Shown here one piece after another: positions 17,452 through 27,021 of a stretch of DNA of 64,000 nt (position 1 is its first letter; every line of letters starts with the position of its first letter). Origin of the DNA: Candidatus Heimdallarchaeum aukensis (GTDB lineage Archaea; Asgardarchaeota; Heimdallarchaeia; Heimdallarchaeales; Heimdallarchaeaceae); NCBI GenBank assembly GCA_021513695.1, contig CP084166.1, forward strand, positions 2,720,001 through 2,784,000, in the 5' to 3' direction. The position numbers and the translations under genes were made by a program. The notes beneath the pieces were generated by a model. It did no database searches, had not been told where the DNA came from, and saw only the letters and a list, made by a program, of their open reading frames with translations.

Positions 17452-19464
17452 GTGCGTGATAATTTTTTCTTTCTTAGAAGGTTAAATCTTTTGGGTAAAC
17501 TTGAGAAGTTCGATAAATATTTTTCTTCTATTGATTGGACTTCTATTTTGGATGAAATCAATGAACGCTTGTTTTTTTTTGGTGGAGGTTATAGTCGCAT
17601 TCTTGATTTATTTTCTGCTACTCTCATTGAACGTGGTATTTGGTTTGATTCTCGTTATTATATGAGCAATAAAGTTCTTAAAATTGTCTTTAAGGTTTTA
17701 TCTCAGTTTGCAGATAACAACCTTATTTTTTCTTTAGTTTCTGCTTTGGATGACTACGATTCTGATGTTCGTGCTGCTGTTGCTGAGCTGTTAGGTCTAA
17801 TTGGCCATTCTCTTGCTGTTGACCCCTTAATCAAATTACTCAAAGATGAGAATTGCTTTGTTCGCAGTAGTGTTGTCATAGCTTTGGGTAAGCTTGGTGA
17901 TCCTCGCTCCATTGCTGCATTTAATGATATTGCCTTATATGATGATTCCCAGGGTGTGCGTGCCGATGTTATACGATCCTTGAGAGAGATAGGTGATCCT
18001 CTTGGTGTTTCCCTTCTAATCGAAGCCCTAAAAGATGAGGATAGTATTGTTGTAAGAGCTGCTTTAGAAGTCTTGCTAGAATTGGTTGATTCTGGTTCTG
18101 TTGAGTTATTAATAGAAGCTCTAAAAGATAGGCATTGGTTTGTTCGCAGTAGTGTTGCAGAAGCGTTAGGCAAAATAGGAGACCCTAGAGCCATTGACTC
18201 CCTAGTAGCTGCCTTGAAAGATAAGGATTATTTTGTTCGCAGTAGTGTTGCAAAAGCTTTAAGTAAAATGGACGATTCTAGAGCCATTGACTCCCTAGTA
18301 GCTGCCTTAAAAGATAAAGATTTGCGAATGCGTCGTATTGCTGCAGAAGTGTTGGGAGAAATAGGTGACTCTAGGGCAGTTGAACCCTTAATAGATGTAG
18401 CTCTAAAAGATGAGGGTTTTTTTGTGCGTGAAAAAGCTATAATACTGTTAGGTGAACTAGGTGATTCTAGAGCAGTCAAGCCCTTAATAGAATTACTAAA
18501 AGATGAAGATTGGGAAGTGCGTCGTAATGTTGCAACAGCGTTGGGTAAAATAGGTGACCCTAGAGCCATTGAACCATTAATCAATGCAACTCTATATGAT
18601 GGTAATTGTGAAGTGTGTTATTTTTCTAAAGAGTCACTGATAAAAATAGGTGATATGAGTGCCGTTGAACCTCTAATAGAAGGACTGAAAGATAAGCATC
18701 CTTCTGTTCGTTGTGTTGCTGCTGAAGTGTTAGGTGAACTAGGTGATTCTAGAGCTGTCAAGCCCTTAATAGAATTACTAAAAGATGAAAATAGGAAAGT
18801 GCGTTGTGATGCTGCAGAAGCGTTAGGTAAAATAGGTGACCCTAGAGCCATTGAACCATTAATCAATGCAACATTATACGATGATGTTTTTCATGTGCGT
18901 AATAATGCTGCCTCGGCACTGAGAGAAATAGGCGTTTCTAGTGCTGTTGAACCATTAGTTAAACTAGCCTTATATGATGAAGATTCAGAAGTGCGTAAAA
19001 ATGCTGCTTATGCTTTAGGTGAAATATGTAATCCTAATGTCGTTGACCCATTAATCGATGCAGACCTATATGATGATGAGGAAGTGTGTGAAAATGCTTC
19101 CTCTGAGTTAGGTTTAAGATGTGATCCTAGTTCAGCTGAATTATTAGTAAATTTAACACTCTATGAGGAGGATTCAGTAGTGCGTGCAAGAGCTTTAAAT
19201 TTATTGGTTCAAATACGTGATTCAATTGCAATAGAAAAATTAATCAATATAGTGCTGTATGATGAAGATTCAGAAGTGCGTAAAAATGCCGCAAAAGCCT
19301 TAGGTGAGATAGGTGATACAAATTCATTTGAAACATTAATAATGAATGCCCTAGATGATGACGAGGGGAAAGTGACTAAAAATGTTGAAGAAGCTGTAAG
19401 AATAATGGGCGATCCTGAATTAATTGAATCACTAGAAGATGCCCTATTAAATAAGAGTTGGTAA
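17452..19464 (+). CDS. HEAT-repeat (PBS-lyase HEAT-like) protein, about 18 tandem repeats
   Basis: About 31-aa units such as VRxxAAEALGKIGDPRAIEPLIxALKDxD reiterate from residue ~95 to the C-terminus. The start is uncertain: GTG at 17452, with the first in-frame ATG far downstream. Confidence 0.8.
   Translation: MRDNFFFLRRLNLLGKLEKFDKYFSSIDWTSILDEINERLFFFGGGYSRILDLFSATLIERGIWFDSRYYMSNKVLKIVFKVLSQFADNNLIFSLVSALDDYDSDVRAAVAELLGLIGHSLAVDPLIKLLKDENCFVRSSVVIALGKLGDPRSIAAFNDIALYDDSQGVRADVIRSLREIGDPLGVSLLIEALKDEDSIVVRAALEVLLELVDSGSVELLIEALKDRHWFVRSSVAEALGKIGDPRAIDSLVAALKDKDYFVRSSVAKALSKMDDSRAIDSLVAALKDKDLRMRRIAAEVLGEIGDSRAVEPLIDVALKDEGFFVREKAIILLGELGDSRAVKPLIELLKDEDWEVRRNVATALGKIGDPRAIEPLINATLYDGNCEVCYFSKESLIKIGDMSAVEPLIEGLKDKHPSVRCVAAEVLGELGDSRAVKPLIELLKDENRKVRCDAAEALGKIGDPRAIEPLINATLYDDVFHVRNNAASALREIGVSSAVEPLVKLALYDEDSEVRKNAAYALGEICNPNVVDPLIDADLYDDEEVCENASSELGLRCDPSSAELLVNLTLYEEDSVVRARALNLLVQIRDSIAIEKLINIVLYDEDSEVRKNAAKALGEIGDTNSFETLIMNALDDDEGKVTKNVEEAVRIMGDPELIESLEDALLNKSW
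17750..19330. repeat. DNA-level tandem ~93-bp repeats encoding the HEAT units
   Basis: Nearly identical nucleotide blocks recur, for example ggtgaccctagagccattgaaccattaatcaatgcaac at about 18560 and again at about 18836. They produce long spurious antisense ORFs. Confidence 0.7.
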
Positions 19465-19565: not shown

Positions 19566-19597
19566 CTTTCCTTTCTCTTCTTTTTTGCTAACTTTTG

Positions 19598-19810
19598 TTA
19601 ATACCTGAATCTTTCTCTAGATTTTAAATAAATTTCCATCAGTTTTGGTTTTTTTGACGCTCTATCCATTAGTTCTTCAATTTCTTTCTTTGGTTGTCCT
19701 TTTTCTGCTTTAATTCTTGATGTAGTAACGATCACATAAATTAACATCGCAGTAATAGCTAAAAAACCTCCAAAAACGATTATACCGAAGGCTACTATTA
19801 CTATATTCAT
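19598..19810 (-). CDS. small single-TM membrane protein (70 aa), paralogue 1
   Basis: MNIVIVAFGIIVFGGFLAITAMLIYVIVTTSRIK..., a TM helix plus a K/E-rich tail. About 75% identical to the ORF at 20082..20297. Confidence 0.5.
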   Translation of the reverse strand: MNIVIVAFGIIVFGGFLAITAMLIYVIVTTSRIKAEKGQPKKEIEELMDRASKKPKLMEIYLKSRERFRY

Positions 19811-19860
19811 CGAATAATAATAGCTTTCAACAATTAAATACTTTTGGAAAAAAGGTATAA

Positions 19861-20080
19861 TTAATTATCTCTTAATTTTTTGTTCATATGCCTTCATTAG
19901 TTCCTTAAAGCTTCTTCTTTTGTAATATCTTTTGGATTTAAGGTAAGTGTTCCATCGTTTATCGCTTTTTCTGTTATTTCTTCTAGCTGTTCTTCTTTTT
20001 CTCCCTCCTCTTTCAATGTTTTTGGTAATTTTGTTAATTAACCTTTCTTGAAGTTCTTCTACTTTTTTTTACTGACTTAT
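19861..20080 (-). pseudogene. decayed duplicate of the 3' end of the Fe-alcohol-dehydrogenase gene
   Basis: The nucleotide sequence parallels 20341..20560 (adh C-terminal ~70 codons) at roughly 85% identity, but in-frame stops break the ORF. Confidence 0.6.
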
Positions 20081-20081
20081 G

Positions 20082-20297
20082 TTAAAACCATAATCTTCCC
20101 TTATACTGTAAATAATTTTCCATTAATTTTGTATTTTTTGCTGCTCTATCCATTAATTCTTCAATTTTCTTTTTTGGTTGTCCTTTTATTGGTTTGATTC
20201 TTGATGTCGTAGCAATTAGATAAATTAATATCGACATAATAGCAAAAAAGCCTACAAAAACAATTACTCCAAAGGCTACTATTAGTGAACTCATCAT
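20082..20297 (-). CDS. small single-TM membrane protein (71 aa), paralogue 2
   Basis: MMSSLIVAFGVIVFVGFFAIMSILIYLIATTSRIK..., immediately downstream of adh on the same strand. Confidence 0.5.
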   Translation of the reverse strand: MMSSLIVAFGVIVFVGFFAIMSILIYLIATTSRIKPIKGQPKKKIEELMDRAAKNTKLMENYLQYKGRLWF

Positions 20298-20360
20298 ATA
20301 ATAATAGTATTCGACAGTTATATACTTTTGGAAAAAGGGTATTAATTATTTCTTAATTTT

Positions 20361-21542
20361 TTATTCATATGCCTTCATTAGTATCCTTAAAGCTTCTTCT
20401 TTTGTTACATCTTTTGGATTTAAGGTAAGTGATCCATCATTTATCGCTTTTTCTGCTATTTCTTCTAGTTGTTCTTCTTTCACTCCTGCTTCTTTCAATG
20501 TTTTTGGTAATTTTATTAGTTCATTTAACCTCTCTTGAAGTTCTTCTATTTTTTCTATGAACTTTCTAGCTCTTTCTTTTTCTTCAGTTTTTACATATAT
20601 TTCTTCTCCCGCTAGTGGTAAAAGTAGTTCTTTTAACTCTTCTTTAATCTCTTCGTAGTTGAATTTAAGCACATGTGGTAGAAATATGTTCATTGCTACT
20701 CCATGAGGAATTTTTGCTACTGCTCCTGCAGCGTGTCCTAAACTATGTACTAGACCGACCATAGAATTAGAAAAAGCTACTCCTGCCATTGTTGCTGCTA
20801 TTGCCATTTCTAATCTTCTTTCTTTGTCCTTTCCATTTTTCACTAGTTCAACGATGTTTTTACTAATTAATTCTATAGCCTTCCATGCATAGACGTCGCT
20901 AAAGAGGTTTTTTTGTAAACAAGTATATGCTTCTATAGCGTGAGTTAGTGCGTCCATAGCTGTTAAAGCTGTTATATAAGCTGGTAGGGTAATAGTCATT
21001 CGTGGATCTATTACTGCTACGTCAGGCATAAGATATCGTGAAGTAAATAACATTTTAGTTGCAGACTTGTCATCTTTTATCACAGCAACTGCTGTTACTT
21101 CTGAACCTGTACCTGCAGTAGTAGGAATAACAAAAAGAGGTCTAAGCGGACGTTTTAATCTTTCTGCTCCAGCAAATTCTTTTAGATCTTTTCCTTTTTC
21201 TGAAACTAAGATATTTACTCCTTTTGCTGTATCTATTACTGATCCTCCGCCTATTGCTATTATCCCATCACATTTTTTTTCATTATAGATTTCTGCTATT
21301 TTATTTACTTCCTCGGTTGAAGAATCTTGAGGTATGTCATCTATTATAGCAGGGAATATTACATCTGCTCCTCCACATGCTTTAATTACTTTATCTACCA
21401 ACCCTGCTTTGTTTACTCCTCTATCAGTGAGAATGATAGGTCTTTTTACTCTGAAATTATCAAATTCCGAAGGCAAGTTTTCTAAAGCTTTTTTGCCTGC
21501 TAATATTTTTGTCTTATTCTGAAATTCAAAATATTCTTTCAT
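20361..21542 (-). CDS. iron-containing (group III) alcohol dehydrogenase
   Basis: GGGSVIDTAKG, the HGVAMNIFLPHVLKFN metal-site region and the Fe-ADH fold. The track start at 21551 is GTG; the likely start is ATG 21542 (MKEYFEF...). It lies 5 nt downstream of aor. Confidence 0.85.
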   Translation of the reverse strand: MKEYFEFQNKTKILAGKKALENLPSEFDNFRVKRPIILTDRGVNKAGLVDKVIKACGGADVIFPAIIDDIPQDSSTEEVNKIAEIYNEKKCDGIIAIGGGSVIDTAKGVNILVSEKGKDLKEFAGAERLKRPLRPLFVIPTTAGTGSEVTAVAVIKDDKSATKMLFTSRYLMPDVAVIDPRMTITLPAYITALTAMDALTHAIEAYTCLQKNLFSDVYAWKAIELISKNIVELVKNGKDKERRLEMAIAATMAGVAFSNSMVGLVHSLGHAAGAVAKIPHGVAMNIFLPHVLKFNYEEIKEELKELLLPLAGEEIYVKTEEKERARKFIEKIEELQERLNELIKLPKTLKEAGVKEEQLEEIAEKAINDGSLTLNPKDVTKEEALRILMKAYE

Positions 21543-21556
21543 TTTTTTCACCTTTA

Positions 21557-23935
21557 TTAAATGTTAAAAGGAATTGAGAATAAATATAGGTAAATTCTAA
21601 CAATATATCTCTTCATTAAATTAATAGTAGGTATTTTTCGCATTATTCTTTTTGCAATAATTCTTGGAAAAAGATAGGTTTCTGTGATATTTAGGCAACG
21701 TATTAGAGACATAGCAATTTGAGTATCTCCTTTAACTTTTATTGCATTAGATGCATAAGCATGATGTATGCCTTTCTGAGCAGTCATTAACTCAAAAGCA
21801 GCGTCTATAGTTCTAAAAGTAATAACTAGATCTGCTTGTTTTTCTGGAATCTTTTGAGGATTTAAGACTCCTTTTTTATTCTTTAAAAGCCCTAAACTAG
21901 TTTCATAGTTATCTACATTAAATAAAATCTTGAAATTTGTTGGCCAAGATCTAATCTCTTGCTTAATATTAGAATCAATAGTTGATAATGTCTTCATTGC
22001 TCTTCCTAAAATTGTAAAAACTAAAGATACTATTCTTTCTTTAATTCTCTTAGGTTTAGGTTGGAATCCTTCTTCTATTCCTAACTTTTTCATGACCTTT
22101 GCTGTTGGGACACCGTTTCTTGAATAACCTCTAATCTTGTAATACTTTTCTTGCATCTCTTCTAAGGGGACAACTTTTTTCTTTTTATCGCTCTCTCTTC
22201 CTTCATTTAGGAATCGTTCAGGAAGAGTATCATCTATTCTTGAGACACCTATCAAGGTGTTCATATATCTTTCTAGAATATGAATTCTTTCACCTGCTTT
22301 GAGAAAATCACGAGAACTTTGTTTTATTCCAGTTACAGTTTCAAATAATTTAGAGTAAATACTTATATCTAATACTTTTTGCGTTATTCTTGGAAAATAG
22401 CTAATAAAGATTTTCAGAAATATTTTTGGCGGATACTTTGCTATTGGTGCTTCTAACATAAAGGCATAAGAAGTAAAAATACATAATTGTAGTGAATTAA
22501 TTGCTGAAAAGAGATTTTCCATGTAATAAACAAACTGTGCTTTAGCTCGCTTCGATTCTCCTTTAAGAAAATTGAAAAATGCTTCTAGGGTGAATAATGA
22601 TGCAGAAAGGTGACACGCTCCTCTATTTGCAACACTGTAGGATAGCCCTTGTCCCCAACATCCTCTTGGATCATATCCTGAAAATTCTAGACCTTTAATA
22701 TTCATTGCAAATCCTTTTCCACCATATTTTTCTGCTAGCCTTTTAGTTCCAAGGGCTAACTCTTCTCCTATTCCTTTTCTGTATGCAATGTCATAAAGTA
22801 TTTCAGAAACTCCTTCTGGAGAACCAAATTTTAGTGGAAAAGAAAAGAGATTTTTCTCATTAGCTTCTATGGCATATGCTAATGTTACAGATATAGAAAT
22901 AGTATCTAATCCTAATCTTGAACAAATTTCATTCCATTCAGCAATTTTTTCAGCATCATATATCTCTAGATTAGAACCAAATAAACTTGTGGTCTCATAT
23001 TCTGGAGCTTGAATTAATTTACCGTTGAACATTCCTTTATGTCCACAGAGGATTGCACAGTTCCTGCAAGAGCTGTATTTCTTATAGAATTCGGACTTTA
23101 ATCTTTCACCATACAGTTCACTAGCTTTTTCGCTCATACCTTTTGTGAAATTGCGAACTGGTAAGATCTTTTTTTCGTTACATATCCTAAAACCAGCGTT
23201 TGTGCCATAATTTCTGTATAAATCTGAAGTATATTCGTTTCTATTAATATACTTAATTGCTTTTCTTTTTATTTTCATGTATTTCTTTTCTTTTTTTGGT
23301 TTTATTCTGAAAGAACCTTTTTCAACAACAATAGCTTTAAGGTTTTTAGCTCCAAAGACAGCTCCTATTCCTCCTCTACCAAAAAATCTGTGTCCAGAAG
23401 CTACATTGGCATAAAGAACCCTATTTTCTCCTGCAGGACCAATAACTAGATTCCCTTTATTTTTTGCTTCTAGTAATTCTTGAGTCTCAAAGATATCTTT
23501 ACCCCAAATTTTAGAAGCACTGTTAAATGAAACACCGTTTTCTGTAATAGATAGATAAGTTGGTTCTTTTGCTTGCCCTTTTATTATTACTCCGTCATAA
23601 CCTACAGATTTCAAGAAAAACGCAAATGACCCTCCACAAGATGAAGAAACTATTAAACCTGTAAGCGGAGATTTAGTAACAGCAGCAAAGCGAGAAGAAT
23701 TGGGTGCACCAGTTCCAACCATTACTCCACCAAAGATGGCAATAATGTTATCTTCACCTAAAGGGTCACAAGACAGATCCATCTTTTTATATAGATAGTA
23801 AATGGCTAATCCCTTTCCTCCGAGATAAAGTTTTCTTTCTTCATTACTTATAGAAACTGTTGTAAAAGCTTTCTTTGTAAGATCAATCTCAAGTAGTTTG
23901 TTGTGAGACCCTAAAATCAACCTAGGACTAGTCAT
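21557..23935 (-). CDS. aor: tungsten-type aldehyde:ferredoxin oxidoreductase with C-terminal SCP2 sterol-carrier-like domain
   Basis: N-terminal LGGKGLAIYYLY...APNSSRFAAVTKSPLTG and the CRNCAILC 4Fe-4S motif. The FETVTG...KAGERIHILERYMNT...DTLPERFLNEG segment also matches the AOR family. Residues ~630-760 (NPQKIPEKQADLVITFRTIDAAFELMTAQKGIHHAYASNAIKVKGD) match the SCP2 fold consensus (ADxTITMxDxDFLALMTGKLNPQxAFxxGKLKIKG). Confidence 0.85.
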   Translation of the reverse strand: MTSPRLILGSHNKLLEIDLTKKAFTTVSISNEERKLYLGGKGLAIYYLYKKMDLSCDPLGEDNIIAIFGGVMVGTGAPNSSRFAAVTKSPLTGLIVSSSCGGSFAFFLKSVGYDGVIIKGQAKEPTYLSITENGVSFNSASKIWGKDIFETQELLEAKNKGNLVIGPAGENRVLYANVASGHRFFGRGGIGAVFGAKNLKAIVVEKGSFRIKPKKEKKYMKIKRKAIKYINRNEYTSDLYRNYGTNAGFRICNEKKILPVRNFTKGMSEKASELYGERLKSEFYKKYSSCRNCAILCGHKGMFNGKLIQAPEYETTSLFGSNLEIYDAEKIAEWNEICSRLGLDTISISVTLAYAIEANEKNLFSFPLKFGSPEGVSEILYDIAYRKGIGEELALGTKRLAEKYGGKGFAMNIKGLEFSGYDPRGCWGQGLSYSVANRGACHLSASLFTLEAFFNFLKGESKRAKAQFVYYMENLFSAINSLQLCIFTSYAFMLEAPIAKYPPKIFLKIFISYFPRITQKVLDISIYSKLFETVTGIKQSSRDFLKAGERIHILERYMNTLIGVSRIDDTLPERFLNEGRESDKKKKVVPLEEMQEKYYKIRGYSRNGVPTAKVMKKLGIEEGFQPKPKRIKERIVSLVFTILGRAMKTLSTIDSNIKQEIRSWPTNFKILFNVDNYETSLGLLKNKKGVLNPQKIPEKQADLVITFRTIDAAFELMTAQKGIHHAYASNAIKVKGDTQIAMSLIRCLNITETYLFPRIIAKRIMRKIPTINLMKRYIVRIYLYLFSIPFNI

Positions 23936-24078: not shown

Positions 24079-27021
24079 TTAGTTAGTTTTAGCGAAAACA
24101 AGACCTTTTTTCTTGAGTAATAGCAGTATTACTGTAATAAGACCAATGCCGCCCACTGCAGCTAGAGGAATAATATACATTAATGGATTAATTTCTTTTT
24201 CTACACTGTAATTTATTTCAAATATTTCAGTTTCTGTAGTTAAAGATGAGTCATCAGTTGCACTTATCTTGAAAATTAAGGTTCCTGATTTTTTGGGTAA
24301 TTCTATGTCAAAGAAGTAACAATCTGTCTCATTGTTGTAAAGCATTGTTTCAACCATCCATTCATCTTCTGTAGCAAATTTGTAAGAAAACAGGACATTT
24401 GTTATATTTCCATCATCGGTCACATTAGCTCTGATTCTTATCGCTTTTTCTTCTAGGACTAAAGGAGAAGAGAATGACGTATCTAACACGATAATTATTG
24501 GAGCTAAAGCTTTTGTAAACTCTATAATGGTAATATTAGATTCTGAAGAAAATCCAGCAAGATCATATGCTCTTACTTTGTATGTCAAGTTCCCTGAAGA
24601 AATAATGACCGGTATCGAAACTGTGTATAAAGATATAGAAGAGTCATATTTCATTGAAAGTATTTTCCAATCGCTTTCTTCATCAAATGTGTAATAAACT
24701 TCTACTGTAAGTAATCCTCCTTTATCTGTGACATTTGCTTGAACTTCAATATCATAACCCCCAGCTAGGTCAAGAGGACTTGTAATAGGAATTAGACTAA
24801 TATTTGGAGCTAATCCATCTGAATAATAACTAAAGGTAGAACTATTAACTGAGTTATCTAATGCGTCAGTTAAGGTAATATAAAATAGAACATCTGTATC
24901 CATATTTGTTCTGGGGATAGTAGAAATAAATTCATAACCTATTGGAATAGTATAATGCTTTAATACAATCTCATAATTTATTACAGAACCAGAATATAAA
25001 TCAGAATAATCTGTAATTTTTAGAGTGAAATTAGCTTCTGTGAAGTCAGATTGAGTTAACCCAAGTTCTAGTAAGTCGATGCTTAAAGTAAAACTTGTTG
25101 GTCTAGTTTCTCTATCAAAAATCAAAAATTCTCTTCCATCATCTAATTCTAACCAGATTCTAATATCTGCAGATTTCTCGTGAGTGATGTCAACGTTTAG
25201 TGTTGCTTCTGATACTCCTCCTCCTCTTTCAACATTTAAAGTTACAAGTGTTGTACTATTGTCTTCAATTAAGGCAGGTAAGTCTACAGCAGTAAAAGTT
25301 TCCATATAATCCATAAAAGAATTGTAGTTTATGACATAGGATATTGTGTTGTTCCACGTTATTCCTCCATCTGTACTATACCAAACAACAGAAGTTTTAA
25401 GGTCTGTGTAGTCGGTCGCATTAAATAACACTTGGACATCGGTAATATTTGAGATTACTGGGGGGTTAACAAGTAGTTTGCCCAAAATAGGTGCTGCACC
25501 ATCAGCATAATAGAAGTTGACTGAAGTGTTCCCCACATTGTCAAAAAAGTCATAAGTTTCAAAGAAGTACTCAACAAACGTTGTTTCGTTTGTTTCAGGT
25601 AGAATAACTGTAAAAGTTGTGGGGGATGTTCCTTCTTCTATTGGCGTTGTATTGACCATCTGTTTTCTTAAGAAAGTTGTTCCGTTAGGCATTGAGTATA
25701 AAATATCAACTCTTTTTGTTCCTGAAGGGTCAACAAATTTTGCAGTAATATTAACTTCTGAACTTGTTAATGTTACATTTTCTATTCCTGGAATAGATAT
25801 TCCGCCATAAATTGAAATTGAATTTACTCTGGGATTCATGTTATCTACTATGGCGGTTTTTAATCCAGATGATCCCTCTCTTCCTTTTTTAGAGTCAACT
25901 ATATCTGAAGCATTTATCATGTATAGAAGATTAGCTTCTACATTAGAAATATCGTCTATTTGAAGTGTTGTACGGTAACTTGCCGCTGTACTACTTAAAT
26001 CTGTCAAATATTCAAAGTTTTGCGATTTATAGTCTTCCTCACCTTCAATCTTATAGTATAAAGTTACACTAGTATCATTAATCGTTTCTACTCCATCATA
26101 ATCCGTAACTGTGACATTAAATACAAAACCAGTGTCTGCATTAATAACTGTTGGTACTTCATGAATGGTAATCTTGGGGGTCCAATCCATAAGAAATGTG
26201 TATGTTTCACTGGTCATTGAATTATTGAATAGATCAAACGAGGTAACATAATATTCAACCCAAGTGGGAGTGTTAGTTGTGACGCTAGGTGGAGTTATAT
26301 CTCCACTAAAATATTCTTCATATATACGCAAGTAATTAAATACTGGGTCATTTACATTAGGATGATCTCCAATATGTGTGATCGCAAATATCTTATATCC
26401 TAATACAGATTCTGTGCTATCATAATCTACAGGAAATGGTGAAACTTCTTCTGTCCCTCCATATGATCCATCAATATATCTTTGTTCCCATGTTTCTGAA
26501 GTAATATTAAAGGCTTCAATTGAGACATAGACAAGATTGTTACGACTTGTTTCCTTATCAATTGAGCAATATATTCTCTTTATTACATCTCCTTCATTAG
26601 CTATGAAAATGTATTCACCATATCTCCATTCTGTTTTATCATTCGTTTTGATTCCAGTGTCAGTTATGTATCCTGTTGATTCAAACTCTGTCTCATCCAC
26701 AACTAGTTGTAAATCTCTACTCATCGAAGCGTTAAACAAAGTATCGTTTAGTGAAATATACTTCCACCACAGAGTAGCATTCCTTATTTCATCTGAATCA
26801 CTTATTGTCAAAGAAACCGTTGCTGTTTCATTGCTATTTGGAGCATCAGGACTAACCTGTGGTGTTCCGAAGAAACTATATTCTGAACTGAATTTTATAG
26901 GTGTTTCTCTGTCTAAAGTTCGGTTTGAAGATAAGTAAATATTCAGCGATACTTCTACACTAGCAGTTATTAAGACAGCTGTAATTAAAATAATTTGGCT
27001 AAATTTCTTTAATTCTTTCAT
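24079..27021 (-). CDS. large cell-surface (S-layer-like) glycoprotein, N-terminal signal peptide and C-terminal TM anchor
   Basis: A signal-like N-terminus FSQIILITAVLITASVEVSL, dozens of N-x-S/T sequons, and a C-terminal LMYIIPLAAVGGIGLITVILLLLKKKG TM plus basic tail. No enzymatic motifs. Confidence 0.6.
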   Translation of the reverse strand: MKELKKFSQIILITAVLITASVEVSLNIYLSSNRTLDRETPIKFSSEYSFFGTPQVSPDAPNSNETATVSLTISDSDEIRNATLWWKYISLNDTLFNASMSRDLQLVVDETEFESTGYITDTGIKTNDKTEWRYGEYIFIANEGDVIKRIYCSIDKETSRNNLVYVSIEAFNITSETWEQRYIDGSYGGTEEVSPFPVDYDSTESVLGYKIFAITHIGDHPNVNDPVFNYLRIYEEYFSGDITPPSVTTNTPTWVEYYVTSFDLFNNSMTSETYTFLMDWTPKITIHEVPTVINADTGFVFNVTVTDYDGVETINDTSVTLYYKIEGEEDYKSQNFEYLTDLSSTAASYRTTLQIDDISNVEANLLYMINASDIVDSKKGREGSSGLKTAIVDNMNPRVNSISIYGGISIPGIENVTLTSSEVNITAKFVDPSGTKRVDILYSMPNGTTFLRKQMVNTTPIEEGTSPTTFTVILPETNETTFVEYFFETYDFFDNVGNTSVNFYYADGAAPILGKLLVNPPVISNITDVQVLFNATDYTDLKTSVVWYSTDGGITWNNTISYVINYNSFMDYMETFTAVDLPALIEDNSTTLVTLNVERGGGVSEATLNVDITHEKSADIRIWLELDDGREFLIFDRETRPTSFTLSIDLLELGLTQSDFTEANFTLKITDYSDLYSGSVINYEIVLKHYTIPIGYEFISTIPRTNMDTDVLFYITLTDALDNSVNSSTFSYYSDGLAPNISLIPITSPLDLAGGYDIEVQANVTDKGGLLTVEVYYTFDEESDWKILSMKYDSSISLYTVSIPVIISSGNLTYKVRAYDLAGFSSESNITIIEFTKALAPIIIVLDTSFSSPLVLEEKAIRIRANVTDDGNITNVLFSYKFATEDEWMVETMLYNNETDCYFFDIELPKKSGTLIFKISATDDSSLTTETEIFEINYSVEKEINPLMYIIPLAAVGGIGLITVILLLLKKKGLVFAKTN

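Follow-up and report, generated by a model that had tools for sequence, protein, structure and literature searches.

What does an aldehyde:ferredoxin oxidoreductase (AOR) gain from carrying a domain of lipid-carrier type on the same polypeptide? The question is raised by a gene of Candidatus Heimdallarchaeum aukensis, which we analysed within a stretch of 64,000 nucleotides (nt) on contig CP084166.1 (positions 2,720,001 to 2,784,000; hereafter referred to as the window). An initial annotation, made from the sequence alone, had read the product as an AOR fused to a C-terminal domain resembling sterol carrier protein 2 (SCP2) and encoded next to an iron-type alcohol dehydrogenase (Fe-ADH). We found that many genomes encode a homologue of the extension as a gene of its own, so that the protein represents a Rosetta-stone gene fusion and no novel appendage. 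From the analyses described below, we consider it somewhat probable that the genes belong to a conserved alcohol-aldehyde-acid module, in which the SCP2 domain would capture a poorly soluble substrate and present it to the alcohol dehydrogenase (ADH) and the AOR. The features of the two genes in the window, with lengths in amino acids (aa), are the following.

21557..23935, minus strand: AOR::SCP2-like fusion gene, a single unbroken open reading frame (ORF) of 792 aa plus stop codon.
23321..23899, minus strand: AFOR_N domain, residues 13-205 (Pfam PF02730, E = 1.6e-68).
22076..23272, minus strand: AFOR_C domains 2 and 3, residues 222-620, including E314, H442 and C485 (Pfam PF01314, E = 1.8e-109).
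23045..23068, minus strand: CxxCxxxC motif (C290, C293, C297) of the [4Fe-4S] cluster, from the alignment to Cys288/291/295 of 1aor.
22337..22456, minus strand: insert of ~30 aa typical of the clade, helical and hydrophobic, residues ~494-533, which follows directly on C485, the fourth cysteine of the cluster.
22049..22075, minus strand: fusion junction and short linker EEGFQPKPK, residues 621-629, from the ends and starts of unfused relatives.
21671..22048, minus strand: SCP2-fold domain by predicted fold, residues 630-755, opening with two helices, followed by a sheet of five strands with two short helices, and closing with a long helix.
21560..21670, minus strand: basic hydrophobic C-terminal tail, residues 756-792, with two extra helices beyond the canonical SCP2 fold.
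20361..21551, minus strand: iron-type (group III) alcohol dehydrogenase, in the same direction as the fusion gene, with the likely start at ATG 21542 (393 aa).

Judged by its sequence, the gene encodes a catalytically competent enzyme of the AOR family, with a metallopterin, presumably of tungsten or molybdenum, and a [4Fe-4S] cluster. Both Pfam domains scored above their thresholds (AFOR_N, 230.8 bits for a cutoff of 29.8; AFOR_C, 366.9 bits for a cutoff of 27), and the best matches among PDB sequences had E values of 1e-96 to 1e-107, with the AOR of Pyrococcus furiosus (1aor) at 3e-106. In the alignment to 1aor, C290, C293, C297 and C485 correspond to the cluster ligands Cys288, Cys291, Cys295 and Cys494, and E314 and H442 to the active-site residues Glu313 and His448. 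Since all of these match, the cofactor and catalytic residues are intact. The four cysteines and H442 were invariant in an alignment of 92 close homologues, and E314 was conserved in at least 90% of them. The pairwise alignment also revealed an LGLDTIS motif common to the window AOR and 1aor, with an invariant D344, which may be the Asp338 motif of 1aor, one of the two Asp motifs (Asp338 and Asp489) for binding of the pterin and Mg. The position of Asp489 in 1aor is occupied by Asn480, which is invariant in the AOR clade of the window.

The insert at residues ~494-533 was predicted to be helical (predicted local distance difference test score, pLDDT, ~92). The phmmer alignments broke at this point for 5 of the 9 matched solved AOR-family chains, as in 9mqx, where query residues 493 and 534 correspond to residues 497 and 508. 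A role in shaping the substrate channel or as a contact surface for a partner is conceivable. The insert was found in all 120 closest homologues, fused or unfused, and a strict tie to the SCP2 partner was rejected since all members of the clade have it, including an AOR (locus L027) without partner genes nearby. For the AOR, the extension and the ADH alike, no NCBIfam equivalog was identified. The AOR fell below the equivalog cutoffs for both AOR and GAPOR (NF007354, 154 bits for a cutoff of 868; NF040818, 31.5 bits for a cutoff of 1300), and on these scores it belongs to the AOR family, within an uncharacterised clade, and is no equivalog of any named enzyme.

The alignments to solved AORs, which are 604-633 aa in size, end at window residue ~620 and leave ~172 residues beyond the AOR core, in good agreement with the excess of ~170 aa over canonical AORs that had been estimated. 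The part of it that had been assigned to the SCP2 fold, residues ~630-760, does correspond to 21656..22048. By sequence alone, the SCP2 match is borderline. The Pfam profile PF02036 aligned to residues 669-747 with 20.2 bits when the whole protein was searched and with 22.4-22.7 bits when the extension was searched in isolation, for a gathering cutoff of 21.3 bits; the second-best profile, Alkyl_sulf_C, belongs to the same clan (17.8-21.4 bits). A search of PDB sequences with the single extension sequence ranked SCP2 first with an E value of only 0.7, and a search with a profile of 78 family members gave human and rabbit SCP2 as the three best matches (E = 0.008). Of these 78 members, 23 matched PF02036 at E <= 0.01. 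The segment quoted in the initial annotation as a parallel to the SCP2 core aligned to both the rabbit and the human protein.

The predicted fold of the extension is clearly that of SCP2, and it is on the fold, with a profile match close to threshold, that the original assignment stands. An AlphaFold2 model inferred from an alignment of 78 sequences had a mean pLDDT of 93.2 and a predicted template modelling score (pTM) of 0.86. The order of helices (H) and strands (E) in the model is H-H-E-E-E-E-H-H-E-H, followed by the two extra helices. When the model was compared to the PDB with Foldseek, the first 44 matches were all SCP2-fold structures with a probability of 1.0, among them SCP2, SCP2-like proteins, UbiJ-SCP2, the SCP2-like domain of MFE-2 and the C-terminal domains of alkylsulfatases. 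The identity of the extension to its relatives in enzymes with an SCP2 domain (SCPx, MFE-2, alkylsulfatases) is only 11-24%.

A full-length model was obtained with similar confidence (pLDDT 93.2, pTM 0.83). Its lowest-confidence block is the linker at residues 621-629 (pLDDT 61), and the tail (pLDDT 77-91) contains predicted helices at residues 758-764 and 773-790. As had been described, the tail (residues 756-792) is hydrophobic and basic, with eight lysines and arginines, no acidic residues and a net charge of +8. The motif YLFPxxIA and the terminal R...Y..G.P.G are conserved throughout the family. A tail of this type, which is moreover the best conserved part of the family, might keep a soluble AOR, and the ADH along with it, on the cytoplasmic side of the membrane by means of its terminal helices, with no carrier role for the extension. 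Such a tether could place the enzymes near membrane-bound complexes that oxidise ferredoxin, and one locus with a stand-alone SCP2-like gene (L029) adjoins an Rnf operon. Nevertheless, we find it quite improbable that tethering is the function of the extension. No 19-residue window in the tail or the extension exceeds a Kyte-Doolittle hydropathy of 1.6 (maximum 1.44) and no transmembrane segment was predicted, while AlphaFold2 packs the tail helices onto the domain without a membrane, and a complete SCP2 fold is more than a tether needs. Transmembrane anchoring was rejected: the most hydrophobic helix is the first helix of the SCP2 fold, which has a nearly invariant Gly-Arg pair in its middle.

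A more trivial explanation for the long ORF is that two separate genes have been run together by an error in sequencing or assembly, by the loss of a stop codon or by a frameshift. Homologues of the extension are indeed separate genes in many genomes, and in a metagenome-assembled genome (MAG) of Anaerolineales (L017) the AOR and the SCP2-like gene are located in the same frame with a single in-frame stop codon between them. However, a Logan contig of 53 kb, assembled independently, encodes exactly the same protein of 792 aa, and in Ca. Heimdallarchaeum endolithica PR6, for which the genome is complete (CP084167.1), the same frame of 2379 nt is present with 126 substitutions and no indel. The nucleotide identity between the two species is 94% for the core and 97% for the extension, and the ratios of nonsynonymous to synonymous substitution frequencies (dN/dS) are 0.13 and 0.26, respectively, which shows that the extension is under purifying selection. 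Furthermore, about 65 of the 120 best homologues of the full-length protein are fusions of 795-841 aa that cover 99% of the query, and the others are unfused proteins of ~620 aa. The fused homologues are from Anaerolineaceae, Thermodesulfobacteriota, Desulfosarcina and a cultured isolate, Desulfosoma caldarium, and a Leptolinea MAG contains a fused frame of 813 aa from stop to stop. The Logan contig, the intact frame in Ca. H. endolithica, the ~65 fused clusters, one of them from an isolate genome, and the dN/dS values led us to reject an artefact, including the frameshifted read-through that the initial annotation had named as the case against its own reading; we regard this explanation as effectively refuted.

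How common is the fusion? The first matches to the extension were stand-alone homologues of 176-179 aa. Word-index searches with either the 172-aa extension or the family profile returned only stand-alone proteins and missed the fused ones, which surfaced only when the full-length protein was used as query and an exhaustive hidden Markov model (HMM) search was performed. The word-index result was thus misleading, and the impression that the fusion is unique to the window was overturned. The exhaustive HMM search identified 508 cluster representatives (50% identity) of the extension family at E <= 1e-3 and 380 at E <= 1e-10. Nearly all members are 150-210 aa in size, typically ~175 aa, and one of the top 150 representatives is fused (P0083, 807 aa). 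In the databases the family members are named "hypothetical protein", with one exception that is called an "SCP2 sterol-binding domain-containing protein". The AOR-SCP2 architecture is common in databases but unannotated, because SCP2 scores just under the Pfam threshold, and the fused proteins are named only as AOR family proteins.

The junctions were compared with the ends of the separate proteins. Unfused AORs of the clade stop 1-4 residues past an LGI motif, and the stand-alone SCP2-like proteins start about 10 residues ahead of a conserved P-x-x-K-x-x-K. The junction in the window is very tight, with EEGFQPKPKR running directly into the conserved N-terminus of the small protein. The linker length varies by clade, from ~9-12 residues in the window to 14-20 residues in most bacterial fusions. 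In neighbour-joining trees, fused and unfused forms were interleaved both for the AOR core and for the SCP2 domain. The window sequence grouped with fused sequences of archaeal type (P0231, P0233, P0083, P0234), and its SCP2 domain was next closest to stand-alone proteins, including one from a Heimdallarchaeota MAG. Because of the interleaving and the different linkers, the sequences suggest that fusion or fission took place several times independently, although these rough, distance-based trees, without a meaningful root, do not fix how often or in which direction. Recurrent fusion and fission is a classic signature of proteins that work together.

The gene downstream of the fusion encodes a group III Fe-ADH, for which both Pfam domains scored above threshold (Fe-ADH, E = 6e-48; ADH_Fe_C, E = 4e-52; 163 and 177 bits). 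Among solved structures, its closest relatives are oxidoreductases of methanol, 1,3-propanediol and lactaldehyde; it also matches the ADH domains of AdhE and reaches no NCBIfam equivalog cutoff. The Fe-ADH gene is on the same strand as the fusion gene, as had been annotated, but the intergenic distance of 5 nt given at the time applies only to a GTG start at 21551, which yields a protein of 396 aa. The ATG at 21542 is the likelier start, being preceded by GGTGA and better supported both by where homologues begin and by a separate gene prediction, which has 393 aa, and it gives a gap of 14 nt. With either start, the two genes are an operon-like pair. The 3' end of the ADH gene is included in a tandem direct duplication of ~510 bp among minus-strand genes (19573..20078 and 20057..20564, 84% identity). 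Each copy comprises the 3' end of the Fe-ADH gene and an ORF of 70 or 71 aa (19598..19810 and 20082..20297) whose product has a single hydrophobic helix at the N-terminus. The ADH sequence of the distal copy (19897..20016) is no more than a non-functional remnant, which is also present in Ca. H. endolithica (L005, 8019..8195).

We examined the neighbourhoods of homologous genes in 18 genome loci, three metagenome loci and further look-ups, which represented Heimdallarchaeota, Chloroflexota, Desulfobacterota, Syntrophomonadales, Spirochaetota and others. Wherever the sequence continued downstream, in about 25 distinct loci, the next gene after the SCP2-like gene or domain encoded an Fe-ADH orthologue, 49-61% identical to that of the window. 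The architecture of AOR core, SCP2-fold domain and Fe-ADH was recovered from the second Heimdallarchaeum genome and from dozens of bacterial lineages, always with the Fe-ADH downstream. The order of the genes is either AOR-SCP2-ADH or SCP2-ADH-AOR. An AOR of the window clade is part of the cluster in the window and in nine other loci (L005, L007, L010, L016, L017, L023, L025, L028 and L030). A second, distant clade of AORs is encoded beside the SCP2-like and Fe-ADH pair in three loci (L018, 7717..10150; L019, 3502..5508; L031, 7844..10181), the hosts of which are Levilinea, Desulfatibacillum and another bacterium. In L018 and L019 these AORs show 26-28% identity to the window AOR, and L018 and L031 also contain a polyferredoxin gene. 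The second clade represents an independent recruitment of an AOR to the module. The SCP2-like gene and the Fe-ADH gene are thus the constant core, and roughly every second locus adds an AOR, either adjacent or by fusion.

A few individual neighbours deserve mention. In an Anaerolineaceae contig (L025, 10966..14421), the ADH gene is followed by genes for a FadR-type GntR regulator, a GlpD-like dehydrogenase and an FAD-linked oxidase of 579 aa, and in Desulfosoma caldarium (L023, 12207..13172) there is a PlsC-type acyltransferase nearby. Both cases hint at the metabolism of glycerolipids or ether lipids, although neither set of genes is seen again in other loci. In the Heimdallarchaeota MAG with a stand-alone SCP2-like gene (L001, 5096..5704), fragments of an IS605 OrfB / Cas12f-like TnpB are located ~2.5 kb upstream.

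The synteny raises the possibility that the SCP2-like domain is an adaptor, which would clamp the Fe-ADH onto the AOR so that a reactive, possibly short-chain, aldehyde is passed directly from one enzyme to the other, with no lipid cargo. Such a complex would be a functional analogue of the bifunctional AdhE. The tightest link of the SCP2-like gene is to the ADH gene, without exception among the loci, and the two genes overlap or lie a short distance apart; the domain fuses to the other enzyme of the pair, the AOR; and two unrelated AOR clades have been recruited to the same SCP2-like/ADH pair. In addition, the invariant charged residues and the very conserved tail (AMSLIRCLN...YLFPxxIA) resemble an interface. 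We consider an adaptor without cargo unlikely, since its structural relatives are all binders of lipids or alkyl chains. Furthermore, none of the top 150 family representatives is an ADH::SCP2 fusion, and no result computed here shows contact with the ADH.

We return to the carrier function proposed at the outset. The ligands of SCP2 domains are fatty acids, acyl-CoAs, sterols, alkyl chains or isoprenoid quinones, and the domains are appended to or accompany enzymes with hydrophobic substrates, as in SCPx, MFE-2 (1ikt), SdsA1 and its relatives (2cfu) and UbiJ/UbiT. The alkylsulfatase SdsA1 has been crystallised with 1-dodecanol (2cfz). The SCP2 domain of SCPx type, MFE-2 (1ikt), SdsA1 (2cfu) and UbiJ were all among the Foldseek matches of the extension. 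By analogy, the domain may bind an alcohol, aldehyde or acid that is poorly soluble in water, such as a medium- or long-chain aliphatic, isoprenoid or aromatic compound. It would shuttle this substrate between the membrane or the solution and the active sites of both enzymes, which would catalyse coupled steps, from alcohol to aldehyde by the Fe-ADH with NAD(P) and from aldehyde to acid by the AOR with ferredoxin, with flux conceivably in either direction. The basic hydrophobic tail plausibly docks the domain on membranes or on a partner, and contact with the ADH would be part of such an arrangement.

Several observations count against a carrier. The AOR and ADH pairs of other anaerobes act on short-chain compounds, such as ethanol and acetaldehyde, for which no carrier is needed. 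As whole proteins, none of 10 other fused homologues tested reached the Pfam threshold for SCP2. The pTM of 0.83 for the full-length model would fit an SCP2 domain that is rigidly docked on the core of the AOR as well as one that is not. Three residues of the extension that are invariant in the family, D34, E40 and R126, are charged, an uncommon feature in a carrier that binds lipids passively, and might instead belong to an interface between proteins. The L027 locus encodes an AOR of the window clade with the same insert, but no SCP2-like gene or ADH nearby. Finally, an all-against-all clustering of ORFs from 14 loci recovered only the SCP2/AOR and Fe-ADH groups as recurrent, along with generic two-component regulators, and no recurrent neighbour pointing to lipids, such as a beta-oxidation gene or a lipid transporter, was found among the clustered loci. 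A more specific proposal is that the trio, which is widespread in anaerobic bacteria and also occurs in Heimdallarchaeia, forms a dedicated pathway for lipophilic substrates, linked to ferredoxin and NAD(P) and with a built-in lipid chaperone, in which fatty or isoprenoid acids would be reduced via aldehydes to alcohols, or long-chain or isoprenoid alcohols oxidised. That proposal is doubtful, and we put it forward tentatively.

The window contains other features besides the pair. Directly upstream of the AOR gene is an ORF of 980 aa (24079..27021, minus strand) with no Pfam match, with hydrophobic segments at both ends and many N-x-S/T sequons, which is probably a surface protein. On the plus strand, an ORF of 670 aa (17452..19464) consists almost entirely of repeats of ~31 aa that by eye are of the HEAT / PBS-lyase type (GDPRAIEPLI..LKD.D..VR..AA.ALG). 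No tRNA or tmRNA genes were detected in the 64-kb window with ARAGORN. The G+C content is uniformly low at 27-36%, with no compositional break around the AOR-ADH pair.

Neither the AOR-SCP2 fusion nor the pairing of an SCP2-like gene with an Fe-ADH gene was found in the literature searched, the coverage of which was limited. A review of tungsten enzymes from 2025 and a 2019 paper on AOR subfamilies mention neither of the two, and searches for AORs with long-chain or fatty aldehydes or fatty alcohols returned nothing relevant. The suggestion that the architecture is undescribed thus agrees with what we found, but it is by no means rare, given that more than half of the best homologues have it. 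Physiological substrates are known for only a minority of the clades in the AOR family, and for one large uncharacterised clade the repeated fusion to a partner with a lipid-carrier fold, always paired with one ADH orthogroup, provides a testable hypothesis. The same data assign the ~175-aa "hypothetical proteins", which form about 500 clusters at 50% identity, to an alcohol/aldehyde module as accessory proteins with an SCP2 fold. For the biology of the Asgard archaea, they suggest a candidate route for hydrophobic alcohols, aldehydes and acids in Heimdallarchaeum, with close relatives in anaerobic bacteria. Were the pathway to be lipophilic, this would be the first AOR clade with a defined class of hydrophobic substrates and could be a source of fatty alcohols for wax or ether lipids that is independent of CoA and ATP. 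AORs that accept long-chain acids would also be of interest in biocatalysis, as an ATP-free route from acid to alcohol.

How does the system compare with those already known? The AOR of P. furiosus (1aor) and the structures 9mqx and 9g7j have the same three-domain core of AFOR_N and AFOR_C, the four cysteines and the equivalents of Glu313 and His448. The window AOR differs from the solved AORs by ~30 extra helical residues, by an Asn in place of Asp489 and by the 172-aa extension with an SCP2 fold, which is present in none of them.

The two chemical steps are the same as in the AOR and ADH route of acetogens and hyperthermophiles and in AdhE, and in that route, too, the AOR and ADH enzyme classes are encoded together. 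The route of acetogens and hyperthermophiles leads from acid via aldehyde to alcohol at the expense of reduced ferredoxin and NAD(P)H. Both this route and AdhE handle soluble substrates of short chain length and lack a carrier domain, and AdhE uses a CoA-dependent aldehyde dehydrogenase and not an AOR. UbiJ/UbiT (6h6o), which is among the top fold matches, is likewise a small SCP2-fold protein that is encoded beside the enzymes it serves and that has a C-terminal extension beyond the fold. In contrast to UbiJ/UbiT, the partners here are an Fe-ADH and an AOR, there are no ubiquinone biosynthesis genes nearby and there is no significant sequence match.

The closest parallels in design are SCPx, in which a thiolase is joined to SCP2, MFE-2 (1ikt) and the alkylsulfatases SdsA1, YjcS and Pisa1 (2cfu, 4pdx, 2yhe), all of which consist of a catalytic domain followed by a C-terminal SCP2 fold. 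The SCP2-fold domains of MFE-2 and the alkylsulfatases are among the top structural matches of the extension. The protein in the window is distinguished from them by ~40 additional conserved residues at the C-terminus and by its catalytic partner, a tungsto- or molybdopterin oxidoreductase. Enzyme-SCP2 fusions are thus an already known design, of which the AOR is a partner for which we found no description.

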